Sequence record: MW882907
Reading direction: 5' to 3' (one strand)
Source: Escherichia phage vB_EcoM_SQ17
DNA length: 64,000 bases
The notes below the pieces were generated by a model. It saw only the letters and a list, made by a program, of their open reading frames with translations. It did no database searches and was not told the DNA's origin. Below are positions 6,954 through 54,442 of this stretch, piece after piece (position 1 is the first letter of the stretch; each line of letters starts with the position of its first letter). The position numbers were made by a program, and so were the translations under genes.

Positions 6954-7364
6954 TTATTCCTTAAAATGTGCTTTCAACATTTGATACAAAGACCATGCCT
7001 GGTCGTTATTTTCGATAGTAATCGTCATCACCGGAAATTCAGACAATTCGTCAAGTTCACTAGAATCTTGCTCTTCAGACGCTTGATATGGATTTTCAAC
7101 TTCGTCAAAGAACTCTGCTTCATTCGTGGAGAGCCAGATAAAGTTTTCATCAAGGATATCACCGCCTGTTGCGTATCCAACCGTGCCAGTAGATGTTAAA
7201 ATTTTAGTAGGACGTCCGAGATGGTCAACATCTAAAATTTTAAAAGGTTCCATACCTAAACGTCGTGCATAAATCCCATTATCAGTGTGGTCTTTAATAA
7301 ACTCTTCTTGGGCACGTTTATCTATAAATTGGTACCATGAGTTAACGCGGAATTTATTAGCCAT
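6954..7364 (-). CDS. hypothetical protein
   Basis: ORF track start at 7382 is a TTG; ATG at 7362-7364 is preceded by GGAAGGAAAC and overlaps the upstream stop as TAATG. Confidence 0.5.
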
Positions 7365-7591
7365 TAGTAAGTTTCCTTCCAATAAGTTGTACCGTTTTCA
7401 GTGATTTCACGGAAGATACCATAGATAGGCATTTCATCGCCGAGTTTTTCGTAAACGTAAACCACTTCAGTGTAGCATAAAAATTCGGTCCAGTTTTTCT
7501 GTACAACAACTAAATCAGGATTAAACAGAACATCTTCAAACTCATCGATGTTTGAATCAGTAGTTACGTTTTTAATGATTTGACGTTTCAT
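7364..7591 (-). CDS. hypothetical protein (75 aa)
   Basis: start reassigned to internal ATG at 7589-7591 preceded by AAGAGGAGAA; the longer ORF-track N-terminus reads through the promoter. Confidence 0.5.
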
Positions 7592-7648
7592 AATATTCTC
7601 CTCTTGTTTTGATAGGTCTATAGTATCATAGACCATAGTTGTTGTACA

Positions 7649-8173
7649 TCATTTTAGCAAAATAAAATCAACTTGTTCTGCCAATGAACGTCTAAACATT
7701 AATTGACAACTTCCGAGGATGAAATCAGGTGCTTCATAGACCGCGATGTAGTATCCTTTAGCTTTCAAGAGTTCAACATCCACCTGGTCATCAAACCATG
7801 CATAAACCGCGTCAACACTTTCAAATCCAAAATAGAACCCTTGAGCCCAATCTTCACTCAATTCAAATGTGTGCTCAATTCTATAGTATCTTAAGATATT
7901 TTGTTCAAGGAGTTTGTCTTCATTTACTGTAGGACGATTAGGGACATTATAGTTGTCGCCGTGATGGTAGAAGTTACCTGAGAGTATTCCATGCTTATCA
8001 AGGAACTCCCATGTTTCTTCAGAGTTGTCGGTGCCCGACCAACCATACGGCGAACGAGGTTCTTTATTCCAAGAGGTTTCCCAAATTCTGACGGCTTTAC
8101 CATCTTCGATAGCAATTCCTGGTAATGATTCACGTTGAGTACAAAAACTACGTTCTACGCGGTAAACTAACAT
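7649..8173 (-). CDS. hypothetical protein
   Basis: 174 aa; ATG at 8171-8173 preceded by CAACCAGAGGAGAA and an early promoter. Confidence 0.55.
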   Translation of the reverse strand: MLVYRVERSFCTQRESLPGIAIEDGKAVRIWETSWNKEPRSPYGWSGTDNSEETWEFLDKHGILSGNFYHHGDNYNVPNRPTVNEDKLLEQNILRYYRIEHTFELSEDWAQGFYFGFESVDAVYAWFDDQVDVELLKAKGYYIAVYEAPDFILGSCQLMFRRSLAEQVDFILLK

Positions 8174-8199
8174 ATTATTCTCCTCTGGTTGATATGGTT

Positions 8200-8228
8200 A
8201 TAATATCAAAACCGGAGGAGAAGTAAAC
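8200..8228 (-). promoter_or_regulatory. T4-type early sigma70 promoter (-35 GTTTAC, 17-nt spacer, -10 TATTAT)
   Basis: minus strand reads GTTTAC-ttctcctccggttttga-TATTAT; about 30 nt upstream of the ATG at 8173. Confidence 0.55.
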
Positions 8229-8232
8229 AACT

Positions 8233-8652
8233 TTATGCAAAAGATGCTGGACAATATTTTTTGATTTGGAACTCAGGAACTACCATGAACTGCCCAGCGA
8301 AAACAATGTTATAAAGCTTAACACCATCTTCTACCCATTGGTCCGAAATAAAACCAGCAACTTGATTCGTTGTCCACGGTGTTCCATCTGTCGCAGCGGC
8401 AATGGTGAACTCGTAGTCTTTTACAACTAAAACTGATCTGCCCAGTTTCCATTTGAACGCTTTTTCTTCTGGTTCAATAAATTGGCTTTTAACGTAACCA
8501 ATGTTACCATCGGCGTCACGAACTTTAACTTGGTTACGACCAAAAACCGGATCACTCACAGAAAGAACTTCAACCAACTTCCCGGCAACTTTAGAGCGAG
8601 AAGCAACAGATACATATACGTAATCACCTGTAGAGAGATTTACAATATTCAT
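8233..8652 (-). CDS. hypothetical protein, member A of a tandem paralog triplet
   Basis: 139 aa; C-terminal GFISDQWVEDGVKLYNIVFAGQFMVVPE shared with the two ORFs upstream. Confidence 0.6.
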   Translation of the reverse strand: MNIVNLSTGDYVYVSVASRSKVAGKLVEVLSVSDPVFGRNQVKVRDADGNIGYVKSQFIEPEEKAFKWKLGRSVLVVKDYEFTIAAATDGTPWTTNQVAGFISDQWVEDGVKLYNIVFAGQFMVVPEFQIKKYCPASFA

Positions 8653-8661
8653 AATAATTCC

Positions 8662-9117
8662 TTAAGCTTTACGAGGAGACACATAACGAGTGATTTCAGA
8701 TTCTTTAACAACTCGGAAGTCACCTAAGAATACGATATTGTATAACTTTTCACCATCTTCAACCCATTGGTCACTAATGAAGCCACACATAGTATCAGTT
8801 TTGCTTGGATAACCGTATTCATCGATGAAGTCAAATTCTTTATCAGTCTGGAATTCAACACCTTTACACAAGGCCCATTTGAACTGTGCATTAGGTTCAG
8901 TAGAAGCAAAATGAGCGCTCACAGGAGTTTCCAAGAATTTAGGACTTACGTAAGCGTGCTGAGTATCCTGACGTCCAAAACTAGGAATGATTCGAACTTT
9001 AACTTCTTTAATGCGTCCCATGCCATTTGTGCGAAGTCCTACCACTTCAACCAGACGACCTGCGGCTTTAGACCGGGATGCAGTTGATACACGCTTAATT
9101 TCACCAATAGTAATCAT
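8662..9117 (-). CDS. hypothetical protein, member B of a tandem paralog triplet
   Basis: 151 aa; GFISDQWVEDGEKLYNIVFLGDFRVVKE; N-terminal STASRSKAAGRLVEV also similar to member A. Confidence 0.6.
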   Translation of the reverse strand: MITIGEIKRVSTASRSKAAGRLVEVVGLRTNGMGRIKEVKVRIIPSFGRQDTQHAYVSPKFLETPVSAHFASTEPNAQFKWALCKGVEFQTDKEFDFIDEYGYPSKTDTMCGFISDQWVEDGEKLYNIVFLGDFRVVKESEITRYVSPRKA

Positions 9118-9146
9118 AATTTTTCTCTCTTTGTTAAATTGAATTC

Positions 9147-9176
9147 ATTATACTCCATCCATCCTTGGATGTACAA
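9147..9176 (-). promoter_or_regulatory. early promoter with inverted-repeat spacer (-35 TTGTAC, -10 TATAAT)
   Basis: minus strand TTGTAC-atccaaggatggatgga-gTATAAT upstream of ORF 8662-9117. Confidence 0.5.
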
Positions 9177-9178
9177 CA

Positions 9179-9673
9179 TTAATTTAGAATATTAACTACT
9201 GCACTACGTGGAACCACACTAAAATCACCGGCATGAACAACGTTCAGAAGTTCAACCCCATCTTCAATCCACTGGTCAGTTACCCATCCATTTACTGGAC
9301 CATCGAATGGGCGTCGAATTGAAACATATTTACACAATAAATCAGTAGGCTCAATAGGCTTAATCAGAGTACCGTACATACAAACGATATCCATATCAAA
9401 GTGGAGACCATCTTTAACAGGTGCTTCTTCAATCAACAGTTCAAAGTCGGTGCTTGGGATGGCAGTAGTAGAAATTGTACCGTATGAATTTTTAATTTCT
9501 AAGAATAACCAAGGGCCTTCAACTTGTTTAATGAAGTTAACAATAGTGAAACTATTACCTTGAGTGGCACCTAAAATTTCACAAAACTTTTCATAAGCTC
9601 GCACTGAAGCACCGTACCAGTTGATTTGTTTTTCGTCTTTCAGGATGTAAGTAGCCATAGTATTGATATTCAT
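9179..9673 (-). CDS. hypothetical protein, member C of a tandem paralog triplet
   Basis: 164 aa; GWVTDQWIEDGVELLNVVHAGDFSVVPR matches the shared C-terminal motif. Confidence 0.6.
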   Translation of the reverse strand: MNINTMATYILKDEKQINWYGASVRAYEKFCEILGATQGNSFTIVNFIKQVEGPWLFLEIKNSYGTISTTAIPSTDFELLIEEAPVKDGLHFDMDIVCMYGTLIKPIEPTDLLCKYVSIRRPFDGPVNGWVTDQWIEDGVELLNVVHAGDFSVVPRSAVVNILN

Positions 9674-9704
9674 AATGTTTTTCCTGTTTGGTTAAGATAG
9701 AAAG

Positions 9705-9734
9705 ATTATACTCCAACCATCCTTGGTTGTAAAC
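9705..9734 (-). promoter_or_regulatory. early promoter (-35 GTTTAC, -10 TATAAT) with CAACCA-N4-TGGTTG inverted repeat in spacer
   Basis: minus strand GTTTAC-aaccaaggatggttggag-TATAAT; about 48 nt nearly identical to the cassette at 52405-52455. Confidence 0.55.
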
Positions 9735-9739
9735 TGGTT

Positions 9740-10417
9740 TTATCGCTGTTTTACACTTAACGGGTCAGGATTCTCAGGGACATCTTCAAGGCCAAGCGCA
9801 TAACGCTGAGCATATTTTAACATCAAAATATCTTTAGCACAATCATGAATACTATCATGGGCAACGAATCCTTTTAGCGTACCCATCGGTAATGGACACA
9901 TACTTAATCCTCGTGTCAACGAGTAAGCTTCGATTGCCGTACGAATATCACGTTGAGCCCAGAATTTAACCGGTTCTAATTTATCAGTATCAATCTCTGG
10001 TTCAGGAACACCTTCATCACGATAGAGGTCACGAATCAAATCGACCAATATCGGGAAGTCAAAGCTCATACCACGGCACCACATCTGTGATTTCCATTGG
10101 TCAACTTTATTAGCTCGGCAATAATCTAAAAAGATTTTAATGCCTTCAAGCGTAGTGACATCGTCTTCAGACGGAGCCAAGTTTTTACGTGCTTCAGCCG
10201 ATTGTTCTTTCCACCATTTCATAGTGGATTTAGCGAAAACTCGCTTACCTTTCTGAGAAGCTAAATTAAATTTAATTCGCTTACCTCGTTGAACAAGTTC
10301 TTCAAATGATTCAACAACTTCAGGGTCGGAATTATATGCAATAACCGCAAGGTCAATAACAGCCGCTTTTGATGTATTGCCGAATGTTTCAAAATCTATA
10401 ATAACATCAGTGCTCAT
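9740..10417 (-). CDS. dexA: exonuclease A (DEDDh 3'-5' exonuclease)
   Basis: 225 aa; N-terminal VIIDFETFG exonuclease motif I; size and position immediately downstream of dda match T4 DexA. Confidence 0.85.
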   Translation of the reverse strand: MSTDVIIDFETFGNTSKAAVIDLAVIAYNSDPEVVESFEELVQRGKRIKFNLASQKGKRVFAKSTMKWWKEQSAEARKNLAPSEDDVTTLEGIKIFLDYCRANKVDQWKSQMWCRGMSFDFPILVDLIRDLYRDEGVPEPEIDTDKLEPVKFWAQRDIRTAIEAYSLTRGLSMCPLPMGTLKGFVAHDSIHDCAKDILMLKYAQRYALGLEDVPENPDPLSVKQR

Positions 10418-10426
10418 AATTTTCTC

Positions 10427-11740
10427 TCAAATAAAATGGACGTCAAACCGACCACGAGTTGTGCCAACATACAATAACTGTTTAGCTAATTCTGAATCAG
10501 CGTAATGGATACACGGTGTATAAACAAAGGCCGTGTCAACAGACATACCCTGGGCCTTATGGAAGGTTGATACTGGTAGTGCCTTCACCTTAGTGAACAT
10601 ACGTTTAGCATCCCAGAATTCGCTCCATGGGGCTTTACCACCTTTATTCCAAAATTTGTATGTTTCTGCGGTCTTAGCCAAAAACAAATTGAATTTATAA
10701 AGCTCTTCTTCAGAAGAAATAACCTTTATATCTTCGCGGATGTATTCTTCATCATCCCCATATGTTTCTACTGTAAGATTCCAGTATCGTATCATATATT
10801 CGCCTGAAACACCACGTGCTTTAACGAATGTAGACGTTTCTACAGCATCTCGAATACGAACGAATTGGCCGTTATTGAAAAGCATTTCGGTCATATTTTT
10901 ACCATCTAGCTTATATGTCTTAGTAAACGGCTCTTGTAGAACAATGACTTCGTCTTTAATAAATGGTTTTTCTGTTTCAAGAAGTTTTCGGCGAATAATT
11001 GAATTTAACTTGTCCACCGACTTATTTGTGAATGCCATCATTCGATTTTCGAAAAGGTCTTCAGGAGTTTTAACGACGTTAAAATAGTTCATCATATACG
11101 ATTTAAGGTCTGTATATCCGTGAACACCATGTCCATCAACTACTTTATCATAAATCCATTTGCCATTACGAATATCAGTCGCAACATCAATAATCGGTGC
11201 ATTGCTACGTTTAACTTCTGTAAGGTTGCATTGCACGAAGTCTTTGTGGGTGAAGAAAGGACTTAGATACGCAGTTGATTCACCTGGGTCTACCGGACGA
11301 ATCTGGCATCGGTCGCCGATTCCAATTACTGTACACCATTTAGGGATACTAGCTAACATTATTTTAAACAGAGAACGGTCGCACATTGACGCTTCATCAA
11401 ATAACAGTACACGGCACAAGGCTAAGTCGGGAACCTTTTTCTGTTCAAACAGTACGTTTTCTTCGTATGTAGTTGGGTTGATTTTAAGAATGCTATGAAT
11501 AGTCGATGCTTCTTGACCCGCAAGTTTGCTTAGAACCTTTTTAGCAGCATGTGTAGGGGCTGCTAAAATAATACCTGATTCTCCAGAAGAAATAAGGGCT
11601 TCAACGATGAATCTAGTAAGGGTTGTTTTACCTGTACCAGCAGGTCCATTAATAGTTACATGATGTTTCTTTTCTTTAATAGCTTCCATAACAACGTTGA
11701 AGGCGTTTTTCTGGCCTTCAGTCAAATCATCAAATGTCAT
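10427..11740 (-). CDS. dda: Dda DNA helicase (SF1B)
   Basis: 437 aa; Walker A GPAGTGKTT, Walker B LLFDEASM; N-terminus matches remembered T4 Dda. Confidence 0.9.
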   Translation of the reverse strand: MTFDDLTEGQKNAFNVVMEAIKEKKHHVTINGPAGTGKTTLTRFIVEALISSGESGIILAAPTHAAKKVLSKLAGQEASTIHSILKINPTTYEENVLFEQKKVPDLALCRVLLFDEASMCDRSLFKIMLASIPKWCTVIGIGDRCQIRPVDPGESTAYLSPFFTHKDFVQCNLTEVKRSNAPIIDVATDIRNGKWIYDKVVDGHGVHGYTDLKSYMMNYFNVVKTPEDLFENRMMAFTNKSVDKLNSIIRRKLLETEKPFIKDEVIVLQEPFTKTYKLDGKNMTEMLFNNGQFVRIRDAVETSTFVKARGVSGEYMIRYWNLTVETYGDDEEYIREDIKVISSEEELYKFNLFLAKTAETYKFWNKGGKAPWSEFWDAKRMFTKVKALPVSTFHKAQGMSVDTAFVYTPCIHYADSELAKQLLYVGTTRGRFDVHFI

Positions 11741-51138: not shown

Positions 51139-51443
51139 TATAATGTTCTCTCAAATTTGTGGAAGCATTTACGGCATTTCAATTTCAAGTTATCGGTGGT
51201 CCAGTTAACCAGCTGGACTTGGATAGTTCCACATTCCGGGCATGGATGTTTTGCTGCCGATTTGGCAGCATTTTCACGTCGTTCAACCATTTTCATTATT
51301 TCGTTCCATGCCGGAGGAACGAACTCTTCTTCACCGTGGATTTTATCTCGCTGAACAAATTCAATCTTTGAACTATCGTCAATAAACTTAACCAAGCCAT
51401 GATTAGTGCTCATATCAATATCCTCTAAAAGACGTAGTTTCAT
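51138..51443 (-). CDS. zinc-ribbon protein
   Basis: 101 aa; CPECG ... CRKC four-cysteine ribbon at the C-terminus. Confidence 0.5.
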   Translation of the reverse strand: MKLRLLEDIDMSTNHGLVKFIDDSSKIEFVQRDKIHGEEEFVPPAWNEIMKMVERRENAAKSAAKHPCPECGTIQVQLVNWTTDNLKLKCRKCFHKFERTL

Positions 51444-52393
51444 TATAACACCTCAATGACATTTCGTAAACCATCAGCTTTTGCATTCAGAGCTTTTAAT
51501 GATTTAGTTTGTTTTGCAATCTGGGCTTCGACTTCTTTCAGACGAGATTTGAGATATTCGCGTTCTTCTCTTAAATTATCAACTTTTTCTACTTTAGGTT
51601 CTTTAATAGGCTTAGGCTTATACTCGTTAGGGTTCTTCAACTTAATTTGAATGCGAGAACTGTATAACATTGAATCGTTATCTTCGGATTCGTCGAACGT
51701 TTCAACAACATCCATAGTCTCTAACAATGTAATAAGTTTATAAGACAACGAACGAATAGTTTTGTTGTGCTTATTAATTTCTTCGGCTTTCATGGTACCG
51801 AGATTACGTGAGTAGTAATAAGGAACCTGGATATCAATTGACAATGATGCGTTACCATTACCAGTTGGTTTGAATACTGCAGTAACCCAATCTTTAACAT
51901 GAACTTTATTTGTACGACCATCACCGCCTGTGAATAATTTACGTGAATGTTTAAAAAGCATATTCACTTGATTATTAAATTCACAAGCAAATTTATCAGC
52001 AAATTTAGTTTCAGGAATGGTAGATAACCAATCAGCCAAATGAGTCTTTTTAACATCATTAACAATAGTGAATTCAACCAAATCGGTTTTAGATGTCACA
52101 GATTTAATAAAGCTCGGCTTCATAAAGTTTTTAATGTTATCGCGAGCTACAGTAGAAGATAATAAACGAGAACGTTTGAACCATTGAAGCAGTGTCCCTA
52201 ATGAATGAGAATATGCATTCTGAGTATCTTTACAGATATGATTTTCTTGGCCTGTGTATGTACCAAAATCGCGAAGAATACCACTTACTACAACTCGGTG
52301 TGGAACATCAAATCCTAATGAACCAGAAGCACGTTGGGCATGAACGTTAGCGATAAGACCTGCAAAATAATCAATGTAATGTGAACGTGTCAT
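51443..52393 (-). CDS. hypothetical protein with C-terminal coiled coil
   Basis: 316 aa; heptad-rich C-terminal 60 aa; own early promoter. Confidence 0.5.
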   Translation of the reverse strand: MTRSHYIDYFAGLIANVHAQRASGSLGFDVPHRVVVSGILRDFGTYTGQENHICKDTQNAYSHSLGTLLQWFKRSRLLSSTVARDNIKNFMKPSFIKSVTSKTDLVEFTIVNDVKKTHLADWLSTIPETKFADKFACEFNNQVNMLFKHSRKLFTGGDGRTNKVHVKDWVTAVFKPTGNGNASLSIDIQVPYYYSRNLGTMKAEEINKHNKTIRSLSYKLITLLETMDVVETFDESEDNDSMLYSSRIQIKLKNPNEYKPKPIKEPKVEKVDNLREEREYLKSRLKEVEAQIAKQTKSLKALNAKADGLRNVIEVL

Positions 52394-52420
52394 AATATTT
52401 TCCTCTCGTTAAGATAGAAA

Positions 52421-52450
52421 GATTATACTCCAACCATCCTTGGTTGTAAA
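52421..52450 (-). promoter_or_regulatory. early promoter cassette, near-identical copy of 9705-9734
   Basis: minus strand GTTTAC-aaccaaggatggttggag-TATAAT with the same flanking leader as the copy at 9.7 kb. Confidence 0.55.
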
Positions 52451-52455
52451 CTGAT

Positions 52456-53391
52456 TTATGATTTTAATGCATTCATTGCGTTAAAAAGTTTAGAGTACTG
52501 CAACTGGAGCTTGGTAACTACTTGTTGAGCATCACGAAGCTTAGCTTGTGCTTTGTCAAGTTCAACAGACAGTTGGTCCACAGTGGCTTTGATTTGATTA
52601 TAATAGTAATCTTCGGCAGGAAGAAGACCGTTAGAGATTTCCAGTTTAGTCGACGGTGAAGTGTATATAGATGGAGCAGTAAAATATGCACCTTGAACTT
52701 CAGCATTGCCAATTGGGGTTGTAGTAATTGACGCTTCGAACGTTGCATTTTCCTTTTTAAGATTTTGATAGTATTCAGAGTCTTTGTGCCACCATGGCGC
52801 AGGAACCTTTTTACCAATAGATACACGAGCCTGGATAGCGATATGGCCCTTATTCTTGATAGGGTTGATAATATTAAGCTCACGAGAATAAATTGCTTTA
52901 ATCTGGTGGATATTATCACCTAACACTTCCAACGCTTGGTGGAATACACGAGCAACGTTATCATTCTTAGGTTTATACGTAAGAGTGAACTCGTTCTCAC
53001 TGATAACCATGATTTCTAACTTATCGTAAGTATATTTCAAATGTTTCATGTTAATTGCTTGAGGACGAATACGAGAAGCAATGGCCATCAGATTGTTAAG
53101 GTTATTCCTGAACTGCTTAGCGAAATATTGTCCTTCACCGCCAATACAAAAATTACGAAGTTTCTGTTTGGCTAATAAACGGCTGAACTCACCATTTTTA
53201 ATGAACTCTTTAACGGGTGTGTTAGTAACGCATTCAAATTGAGTAAACTTACGAGAATTAATCCCATAATATGAACAGATTTCCTCAATCTCTTCAGGAG
53301 TCTTTACAGGCATACGGATAGGATTAGGTCCTGGGGTATATGCGTTCGAGGTAAATTCTTTGATAAGTTCTCTACGTGTAATAGAAGCCAT
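52456..53391 (-). CDS. hypothetical protein with C-terminal coiled coil
   Basis: 311 aa; C-terminal VDQLSVELDKAQAKLRDAQQVVTKLQLQYSKL. Confidence 0.5.
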   Translation of the reverse strand: MASITRRELIKEFTSNAYTPGPNPIRMPVKTPEEIEEICSYYGINSRKFTQFECVTNTPVKEFIKNGEFSRLLAKQKLRNFCIGGEGQYFAKQFRNNLNNLMAIASRIRPQAINMKHLKYTYDKLEIMVISENEFTLTYKPKNDNVARVFHQALEVLGDNIHQIKAIYSRELNIINPIKNKGHIAIQARVSIGKKVPAPWWHKDSEYYQNLKKENATFEASITTTPIGNAEVQGAYFTAPSIYTSPSTKLEISNGLLPAEDYYYNQIKATVDQLSVELDKAQAKLRDAQQVVTKLQLQYSKLFNAMNALKS

Positions 53392-53417
53392 TTTATATTC
53401 CTCATGTTGAAAAATTT

Positions 53418-53446
53418 ATTATACTCCAACCATCCTTGGTTGTACA
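53418..53446 (-). promoter_or_regulatory. early promoter cassette with inverted-repeat spacer (-35 TGTACA, -10 TATAAT)
   Basis: minus strand TGTACA-accaaggatggttggag-TATAAT upstream of ORF 52456-53391. Confidence 0.5.
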
Positions 53447-54442
53447 TCATTCCTTAAGAAGTTTTACTACTTGAATAAGATTAGCTCGTTCCGTTTTATT
53501 TTTACCATTTAAGCCTGCTAATCGTGAGATTTCATCGTCAGTCTGTTGAATAGTTACATTAAGTTCGTTAATCAAAGCTTCAAAGTATTTGATTTGCTCA
53601 GCATGTTTTGATTCAAATTTCTGAACCGGAATAACGTCTTGGTTTAGTTCATCAATAAGGTCTTTAAGAGCATCTTCTTGGTTGATATCATATTCAACTT
53701 CTTTTATTTCTTCAACGAGCTCGTCTTTATATCTAACGTCTTTTAGTCCTGGTGCTGGTCCTGAAATCTCTTCTTTAAGAGTACAAACATATCCAATACG
53801 GTATCCAATGCCGTCTCGCTTGATAACAACTTCGTCGATAAATCCACAATGTTTAAGACCAGAGCCGATTAGGTCAAAATATCCTTGACGTCGTCCTTCA
53901 AACGTTACACGAACTACTAAGACAGTTTTACCTGCAACCTTTTGAAGCTCACATTTATAAAAGTCTGTTGAACCTGAATAACGTGGATGAGTTTTAAAGT
54001 TCATCTGACGATCTAGGCCCATTTGTAAGCGTGCTGATACGGCCATAAAACGTGTTTGGTTCTCGTTAAGATGAGCAACAATCCATTTCAAAGGCATTTT
54101 ACACTGTTCACGACCGAACAAATCAGTACGTCCTAGATTACGCAGAATGTTGTTAGAGTTAATCATCGACAGAACGTTAAGTTTATTCAGCGCGCTGAAG
54201 ATTCCATCGGCCATTGATTTTCCGTAACCTTTACACGCTTTAATAAGCGCTCGCGGTAGATTAGTATAAATTTCAGACGGCATATGAAAATCAAATTTAC
54301 TAGTCAGTAATTGATGAACTTGGATAGCAATTTGCTCATAATTAAGTGCTCTGCGATCATTATGGTCTTTAAACCATACTTTAATCTGTGAAGCACATAA
54401 ACCGTTAATTTCATGTTTTACCGCATCAGATGTAATGCTCAT
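53447..54442 (-). CDS. hypothetical protein with C-terminal coiled coil
   Basis: 331 aa ORF. Confidence 0.5.
   Translation of the reverse strand: MSITSDAVKHEINGLCASQIKVWFKDHNDRRALNYEQIAIQVHQLLTSKFDFHMPSEIYTNLPRALIKACKGYGKSMADGIFSALNKLNVLSMINSNNILRNLGRTDLFGREQCKMPLKWIVAHLNENQTRFMAVSARLQMGLDRQMNFKTHPRYSGSTDFYKCELQKVAGKTVLVVRVTFEGRRQGYFDLIGSGLKHCGFIDEVVIKRDGIGYRIGYVCTLKEEISGPAPGLKDVRYKDELVEEIKEVEYDINQEDALKDLIDELNQDVIPVQKFESKHAEQIKYFEALINELNVTIQQTDDEISRLAGLNGKNKTERANLIQVVKLLKE

Follow-up and report, generated by a model that had tools for sequence, protein, structure and literature searches.

The MotB protein of bacteriophage T4 is toxic to E. coli and gives a two-fold increase in burst size (Patterson-West et al., 2018; PMC6070864). 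Its DNA binding is independent of sequence and extends to modified as well as unmodified DNA, and it copurifies with H-NS and StpA (PMC6070864). It also alters the H-NS DNase I footprint, and 75 host genes are up-regulated, roughly a third of which belong to the H-NS regulon (Patterson-West et al., 2021; PMC7827196). According to the 2021 paper, MotB and MotB.1 share a common C-terminal domain (CTD) and have differing N-terminal domains (NTDs), and duplication of one gene may have given the other. The same paper, where its text cites Table S6, lists two motB copies, motB.1 and a '29 aa peptide' for phage RB69 (PMC7827196). Reported here is a motB locus of this type in a 64,000 nucleotide (nt) stretch of DNA, referred to as the window, from Escherichia phage vB_EcoM_SQ17 (record MW882907). 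The locus contains three adjacent open reading frames (ORFs) of 139, 151 and 164 amino acids (aa), all on the minus strand, exactly where the original prediction, made from the sequence alone, had placed them. That prediction described tandem diversifying paralogs in an early region, typical of host-takeover or anti-defence loci. The analysis confirms the sequence observation and bears out part of the interpretation; the feature is real but ordinary.

Profile searches with PF17613 and PHROG identify the locus as motB/motB.1, which the original prediction had not recognized. The 151 aa sequence matches PF17613 (motB, modifier of transcription) over its full length with 124.7 bits (E-value = 4e-36), the 139 aa sequence with 81.8 bits (E-value = 7e-23) and the 164 aa sequence, at aa positions 88-159, with 34.7 bits; the curated gathering score is 25 bits. 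The 151 and 139 aa proteins match phrog_1671 (MotB-like) with E-values of 2e-63 and 1e-50, and the 164 aa protein is phrog_2333 (E-value = 6e-81) with a secondary MotB match at its C-terminus. By BLASTP, the 151 aa protein shows a 47% identity to T4 MotB over the full length (E-value = 3e-41) and the 139 aa protein a 39% identity. The 164 aa protein matches T4 MotB.1 with an E-value of 8e-26, and orthology of the NTD is also visible in the alignment. On these comparisons the 151 aa protein is almost certainly the MotB orthologue, the 139 aa protein a more diverged second MotB (MotB-like), and the 164 aa protein the MotB.1 orthologue.

The 139 and 151 aa proteins share a 43% identity over 145 aa (BLASTP E-value = 2e-28). 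For the 164 aa protein, similarity to the other two is confined to the final ~30-36 residues (BLASTP E-values of 3e-10 and 4e-9). The C-terminal block previously read in all three sequences is seen in the alignment as GFISDQWVEDGVKLYNIVFAGQF, GFISDQWVEDGEKLYNIVFLGDF and GWVTDQWIEDGVELLNVVHAGDF. When relatives are added to the domain alignment, the homology is found to span the entire CTD of 57-77 aa, beyond the core motif, and includes a first strand, FKWxLCKGV (equivalent PTDLLCKxV), that had not been listed. The conserved columns of the CTD core, G-[FWY]-[IV]-[ST]-DQW-[VI]-E-[DE]-G...L-x-N-[IV]-V, are invariant in the family alignments and occur in all three proteins. The N-terminal STASRSK-type block is present in two proteins, as had been noted (VSVASRSKVAGKLVEVL and VSTASRSKAAGRLVEVV); this KOW-type NTD block, V-S-x-x-S-R-S-K-x-A-G-x-L-V-E-V, is found in the 151 and 139 aa proteins and is absent from the 164 aa protein. 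As judged from the alignments the three proteins are true paralogues, the paralogy of the 164 aa protein being partial. The sequence is not of low complexity; all three proteins pass the PF17613 threshold and are homologous along the whole CTD. Nor are the three genes fragments of one pseudogene: they are complete ORFs with their own ribosome-binding sites, and their orthologues are full-length and evolve under purifying selection. Solved structures gave no sequence match even at E <= 10 when queried with the 151 aa protein and a CTD profile.

The RB69 motB region shows the identical gene order and the same three paralogues, and is the published precedent of the trio. The window DNA shows 99.8% identity to Shigella phage SSE1; for other top-listed records, e.g. 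JS09 and mogra, both classified as Mosigvirus, the identity is 95-99.6%. Thus by sequence identity the window is a Mosigvirus, i.e. an RB69/JS09-type T-even phage, and the trio is the documented Mosigvirus state of the named motB locus, with genes and paralogy already known. In matching phage records the three genes are annotated as MotB, MotB-like or 'transcriptional regulator'. The 151 aa orthologue resembles T4 MotB in its KOW NTD and CTD, its early promoter and its dexA-cef neighbourhood. However, the window has two motB copies where T4 has one, and these have a shorter linker and are less basic (isoelectric points (pI) of 8.5 for the 151 aa and 6.3, net charge 0, for the 139 aa protein vs 9.2, net charge +6, for T4 MotB). 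The 164 aa protein has the same NTD and the same CTD start as T4 MotB.1 of the GoF-MotB.1-Frd.2 LSm-like family. It differs in being intact, and in an extra linker segment with FDMDIVCMYGTLIKP that is missing in T4.

The T4 reference sequence (NC_000866.4/AF158101.6) carries a shortened MotB.1. It is annotated as 119 aa (L003, NC_000866.4, 2292-2651) and ends ...DQWIGRWR at the stop codon, inside the conserved DQWIEDG motif. The remainder of the CTD, EDGVELLNVVHAGEYSVVPRSAVVAILN followed by a stop, is intact in the next frame and continues downstream to position 2143. The difference consists of one extra G, the T4 reference having TGGATTGGAAGATGG and re-sequenced T4 TGGATTGAAGATGG. All 13 of the 13 other near-identical genome records (11 of T4, plus RB55 and RB59) are without the extra G, matching 120 nt of the 121-nt query. 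The record MT984581, which was opened, annotates MotB.1 at 143 aa (L005 210-641), and the 143 aa protein (P0011) occurs on 256 contigs. Judged by these sequences, the 119 aa T4 MotB.1 probably stems from a sequencing error in the reference or from a mutation specific to the stock. In the RB69 reference (L004, NC_004928, 3877-4373), two 1-nt insertions split motB.1 into ORFs of 132 and 29 aa, whereas the window and JS09 carry a single intact 164 aa ORF. The 29 aa ORF is RB69p012, which is treated as a 'Category 3 peptide' in PMC7827196, where MotB proper makes up Category 1 and MotB.1 Category 2. Frameshift artefacts, or frameshifted variants of the intact gene, seem to account for both the 119 aa T4 MotB.1 and the '29 aa peptide' of RB69. 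Kim et al. (2025; PMC12152347), in their work on MotB.1, used gene-synthesised plasmids, mention NC_000866.4 solely in connection with the pTE103 amber constructs, and quote a MotB.1 monomer of 13.8 kDa. If the synthesised construct followed the NC_000866.4 annotation, the expression assays probably used the truncated MotB.1.

Of the 126 proteins that have a MotB.1-type CTD, 99 carry a conserved short linear motif, D-x-D-[VIL]-x-x-[MLAT]-Y; of the 112 whose CTD is MotB-type, 0 carry it. The window copy is FDMDIVCMY, at aa positions 92-100 of the 164 aa protein (9374-9400), in the low-confidence linker. The motif often runs ...MYGTLIKP and is placed at the N-terminus or directly before the CTD (relatives P0036, P0054, P0076 and P0230-P0240).

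The original prediction had the three genes as diversifying paralogs. Selection was measured as the ratio of non-synonymous to synonymous substitution rates (dN/dS) among orthologues from the window, JS09, mogra and RB69; orthologues rather than paralogues were used because synonymous sites are saturated at 43% aa identity. The dN/dS values are 0.16-0.35 (motB.1), 0.16-0.28 (motB) and 0.08-0.18 (motB-like), compared with 0-0.07 for dexA and dda. The motB-like values were obtained among four phages at dS up to 0.48 and show a constraint at least equal to that of MotB. When non-synonymous to synonymous differences per site (pN/pS) are taken by domain, MotB and MotB.1 give ~0.13 in the CTD, 0.28-0.37 in the NTDs and ~1 or more in the linkers, which have few sites. 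MotB-like breaks this pattern, with a pN/pS of 0.16 in the NTD and 0.20 in the CTD. Thus the three genes are under purifying, not diversifying, selection and evolve faster than their replication-gene neighbours. The paralogy part of the earlier claim stands, partially for the 164 aa protein, but the diversification part does not, with dN/dS of 0.08-0.35 among orthologues and ~0.13 in the shared CTD. The variation lies in domain composition and copy number, not in the conserved domain.

AlphaFold2 models were made for the 151 and 164 aa proteins, with a mean predicted local distance difference test (pLDDT) score of 83.9 and 79.0, respectively. Each model displays two small all-beta domains and a low-confidence linker. 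Fold searches were run on whole models, and the top fold matches are the KOW domains of NusG and Spt5; eIF5A (1eif) and EF-P/EfpL are also among the matches. The strand order of the CTD in the models includes a short 3-10 turn ahead of the last strand. An OB-fold (cold-shock-like) CTD was proposed in 2021 (PMC7827196), and the MotB.1 NTD has been described as an LSm-like fold common to GoF and Frd.2 (PMC12152347). Strand order, the 3-10 turn and the two-domain all-beta models together weakly favour an SH3-like CTD over an OB-fold, and the architecture may be two SH3-like barrels in tandem, KOW or LSm-like plus CTD. The 139 aa protein has a KOW NTD and CTD layout like that of the 151 aa protein, with near-neutral charge. 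The whole 164 aa protein is acidic (pI 4.6, net charge -9), and CTD pI values range from 4.5 to 6.4.

The CTD was found in 780 phage records at 1671 places, mostly in Escherichia/Shigella T-even-type phages. The copy-number comparison across relatives proposed with the original prediction shows 1-3 CTD genes per genome, usually two. Mosigvirus-type records have three, as do some Tequatrovirus (RB5, JLBYU31); T2 and PEi20 have a single one. An orthologue of the 139 aa protein at >=80% identity is present in 207 of the 773 MotB-bearing phage records, including Tequatrovirus RB6 and ime09. A search of 1.84 billion representative proteins, a library that carries no source information, with the CTD profile gave ~26 genuine clusters, all of 100-250 aa and consisting of KOW plus CTD or LSm-like plus CTD; no informative fusion partner of the CTD was found among them. 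Both layouts also occur in the phage set, and the family is a small one. Longer profile matches (500-900 aa) were judged spurious, as the inspected P0242 matched through 'GYATEQWV' repeats.

At least four N-terminal arrangements are found joined to the CTD, including tandem LSm-like domains and KOW with a MotB.1-type CTD. The MotB.1-type CTD is 72-89% identical among proteins whose NTDs are unalignable. Natural chimeras are found as well. In P0146 and P0155, both from metagenome assemblies, the front is that of a MotB of the 151 aa type and the tail is of the 139 aa type. The switch point of P0146 is inside the identical GFISDQWVEDG core, and that of P0155 is further upstream, near the CTD start (FKW). 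These chimeras suggest that the tandem duplication can collapse through homologous recombination.

Taken together, it is fairly probable that the locus is a motB locus of a two-barrel family that remodels the host nucleoid, with a docking CTD and an origin by duplication and shuffling; for the mechanism itself confidence is moderate to low. By analogy with T4 MotB, the 151 aa protein may be an early nucleoid-remodelling DNA binder. Its NTD charge (+7) is compatible with DNA binding, less so that of the 139 aa copy (net 0). As in T4, the trio proteins would be made immediately after infection. MotB would coat DNA non-specifically via its very basic KOW domain, a domain assignment made from charge, and would change the seating of H-NS and StpA on DNA. 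H-NS-controlled host DNA would then be de-repressed and the burst size improved. The acidic shared CTD, the most constrained part, would not be the DNA-binding part; from its charge and conservation, docking or oligomerisation common to the three proteins is the likelier role. The NTDs, which are interchangeable and of three kinds (a basic KOW, a neutral KOW and an acidic LSm-like domain), would confer different nucleic-acid or partner specificity, so that the second MotB copy would be a sub-functionalised paralogue and not a redundant one. With DNA binding assigned to the KOW domain and docking to the CTD, a role other than coating DNA would fall to the 139 aa copy, which is neutral, and to the acidic 164 aa MotB.1. 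T4 Arn is an early phage protein that interferes with H-NS. The likeness of the trio to Arn and to T7 gp5.5 is a functional analogy only, through early H-NS interference, and the acidic CTD of the trio is reminiscent of acidic H-NS binders. T7 gp5.5 is cited as a phage H-NS antagonist in PMC7827196.

Several points weigh against nucleoid remodelling by the trio. The published experiments concern T4 proteins, and none concerns any Mosigvirus copy. Knock-down of T4 motB leaves the phage transcriptome almost unaltered, and MotB may be linked to H-NS indirectly, through co-binding to DNA (PMC6070864, PMC7827196). Deletion of motB.1 in T4 has no phenotype (PMC12152347). The charge argument is suggestive only, and the 139 aa copy may simply bind DNA more weakly. 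In a tentative and rather unlikely extension, the CTD would be dedicated to docking or oligomerisation with a single conserved partner (for example H-NS/StpA, or some other component of the nucleoid or of RNA polymerase), giving three 'heads' on one handle, the acidic LSm-like head carrying the linear motif. The role of MotB.1 would then have been missed so far if the T4 construct followed the truncated reference.

The original prediction also offered an anti-defence arms race, in which the paralogues would inhibit different host immune systems and be diversified by selection. The trio does lie in an early region, as had been noted; this region is non-essential and of variable copy number, NTDs are swapped among lineages, and H-NS is a xenogeneic silencer, such that its antagonism is a form of counter-defence (PMC7827196). 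However, the orthologues are under purifying selection with the common domain most constrained, and the family is near-universal among the 780 CTD-bearing phage records, usually in 2 copies, and not patchy like typical anti-defence genes. There is no published or database link to any defence system. PADLOC gave no matches, but it models defence proteins and not their inhibitors, and is uninformative on this point. An anti-defence locus is improbable; the host-takeover half of the original prediction agrees with the characterised T4 homologue MotB, which is of that type. No evidence was found for the anti-defence half, no library of anti-defence proteins having been run. The redundancy of the 139 aa copy, as a duplicate without distinct function drifting to loss, is likewise improbable. 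Little of MotB's basic charge is left in this copy, it lacks its own promoter and it is missing in 566 of the 773 MotB-bearing records, and the natural MotB/MotB-like fusions suggest that the duplication can collapse. On the other hand the 139 aa ORF is intact, its dN/dS (0.08-0.18) makes it at least as constrained as MotB, and it is kept at >=80% identity in 207 records.

The 164 aa MotB.1 could instead be an RNA-binding post-transcriptional regulator acting through its LSm-like NTD, apart from MotB and with only a structural C-terminal module in common. This is a rather unlikely reading. An LSm-like NTD has been proposed for T4 MotB.1, GoF and Frd.2 (PMC12152347), and the overall acidity of the protein (pI 4.6) makes a non-specific coating of DNA unlikely. 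Acidity does not favour general RNA binding either; a gene 41 5′ untranslated region reporter assay showed no effect of T4 MotB.1, and the T4 motB.1 deletion is without phenotype (PMC12152347). The negative reporter result may be uninformative because the construct encodes the frameshifted 119 aa form, if the NC_000866.4 annotation was followed. Mimicry of a translation factor, where the KOW domain and second barrel copy eIF5A/EF-P and act on ribosomes or on NusG/RNA polymerase-type KOW partners and not on the nucleoid, is very improbable. HHpred matches to eIF5A were reported by Patterson-West et al. (2021; PMC7827196), eIF5A (1eif) and EF-P/EfpL appear among the fold matches, and the NusG and Spt5 KOW domains are the top ones. 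Against it, no solved protein is matched in sequence, a non-rigorous look shows no conserved loop with a lysine corresponding to the hypusine or beta-lysyl site, and T4 MotB binds DNA experimentally.

The transcription order in the window is dda, dexA, motB.1 (164 aa), motB (151 aa), motB-like (139 aa), motB.2, cef. The trio is flanked and anchored by dexA upstream and cef downstream, with dda further up and goF further down. This dexA-cef placement is the motB neighbourhood of T4 and is identical to that of RB69. The start of motB-like is 9 nt past the motB stop, and each gene of the trio has its own ribosome-binding site, that of motB-like being AAGGA. Feature coordinates are given in Table 1.

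Table 1. Features of the motB locus and its surroundings in the window.
Feature	Position	Strand	Remarks
motB.1 orthologue, 164 aa	9179-9673	minus	complete ORF
motB orthologue, 151 aa	8662-9117	minus	complete ORF
motB-like, second MotB copy, 139 aa	8233-8652	minus	complete ORF
motB.2 orthologue, 174 aa	7649-8173	minus	BLASTP to T4 MotB.2 E-value 2e-15; phrog_1106
dexA (exonuclease A)	9740-10417	minus	phrog_255, E-value 9e-82; PF16473; JS09 and RB69 annotation
cef	7364-7636	minus	PF24050 T4_Cef, E-value 5.5e-34; 64% identity to T4 Cef
early sigma-70-type promoter of 164 aa gene	9705-9733	minus	TTTACA-17 nt-TATAAT; 11/12 consensus matches; cassette copy CCAAGGATGGTTGGAGTATAAT
early promoter of 151 aa gene	9147-9175	minus	TGTACA-17 nt-TATAAT; 10/12 consensus matches; cassette copy CCAAGGATGGATGGAGTATAAT
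promoter of 174 aa motB.2 orthologue	8200-8227	minus	predicted
164 aa protein, NTD, putatively LSm/SH3-like	aa 1-85, 9419-9673	minus	AlphaFold2 model
164 aa protein, linker with motif FDMDIVCMY	aa 86-106, 9356-9418	minus	pLDDT below 50
164 aa protein, CTD, MotB.1-type	aa 107-164, 9182-9355	minus	AlphaFold2 model
151 aa protein, NTD, basic KOW-type	aa 1-64, 8926-9117	minus	AlphaFold2 model; pI 11, net charge +7
151 aa protein, CTD, acidic MotB-type	aa 77-151, 8665-8889	minus	pI 4.7, net charge -4

The T4 order is dexA, motB.2, motB.1, motB; thus motB.2 is found after the motB genes in the window and before motB.1 in T4. T4 dexA.1 and dexA.2, situated between dda and dexA, are absent from the window (window 7649-11740 vs T4). 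These two T4 genes are weak paralogues of one another (BLASTP E-value = 7e-7). The 174 aa MotB.2 orthologue is called 'transcriptional regulator' in many GenBank records despite having no MotB similarity or Pfam domain, and the label looks like a carry-over from the annotation of the neighbouring genes. Some records give four 'transcriptional regulators' in this region, and the 174 aa gene was considered as a fourth paralogue. This was rejected, as there is no significant BLASTP match to the trio and no Pfam hit.

An early promoter of its own had been assigned to each of the three genes. This is borne out for the 164 and 151 aa genes but not for the 139 aa gene, which has no sigma-70 promoter, MotA-box middle promoter or late TATAAATA motif upstream. 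Since it starts so close behind the 151 aa gene, the 139 aa gene is presumably co-transcribed with it. The promoters of the other two genes contain a 22-nt early-promoter cassette, CCAAGGATGGWTGGAGTATAAT, consisting of the spacer and -10 region. Four copies are found in the window where 0 are expected by chance (9147-9168, 9705-9726, 52422-52443 and 53418-53439, all minus strand). The copies before the 164 aa gene and before the ORF ending at 52393 are identical over ~45 nt. No terminator-like hairpin was found at the cassette sites, there being only a 4-bp potential hairpin in the promoter spacer.

The cassettes resemble the PeSL cassettes of T4-type phages (Arbiol, 2010; Comeau, 2014; PMC2839356, PMC4122927) in being near-identical early-promoter repeats before non-essential genes, in a plastic region with an order shuffled relative to T4. 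They differ in that no convincing terminator stem-loop was seen in the window, and recombination at the window cassettes is inferred. The trio would have originated by tandem duplication of motB to give motB-like, plus domain shuffling that joined the CTD to different NTDs. Homologous recombination at the conserved DQWVEDG core and at the repeated promoter cassettes was probably involved.

Three adjacent genes of 316, 311 and 331 aa at 51443-54442 (minus strand) have coiled-coil-like C-termini, and two of them have the same cassette upstream. They were considered as a further paralogue cluster and rejected; the pair compared (316 vs 311 aa) gives a BLASTP E-value of 0.51, and the three fall into separate PHROGs (1435, 2351 and 2257), all of unknown function.

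As a discovery the trio carries little weight, as its genes already have names and annotations in hundreds of genomes and their paralogy, with the RB69-type trio, has been published. Charge and constraint suggest domain roles for the family, with the KOW domain as the DNA binder and the CTD as the partner binder. For work on T4 early proteins there is a practical consequence: the intact 143 or 164 aa MotB.1 is the form to use.

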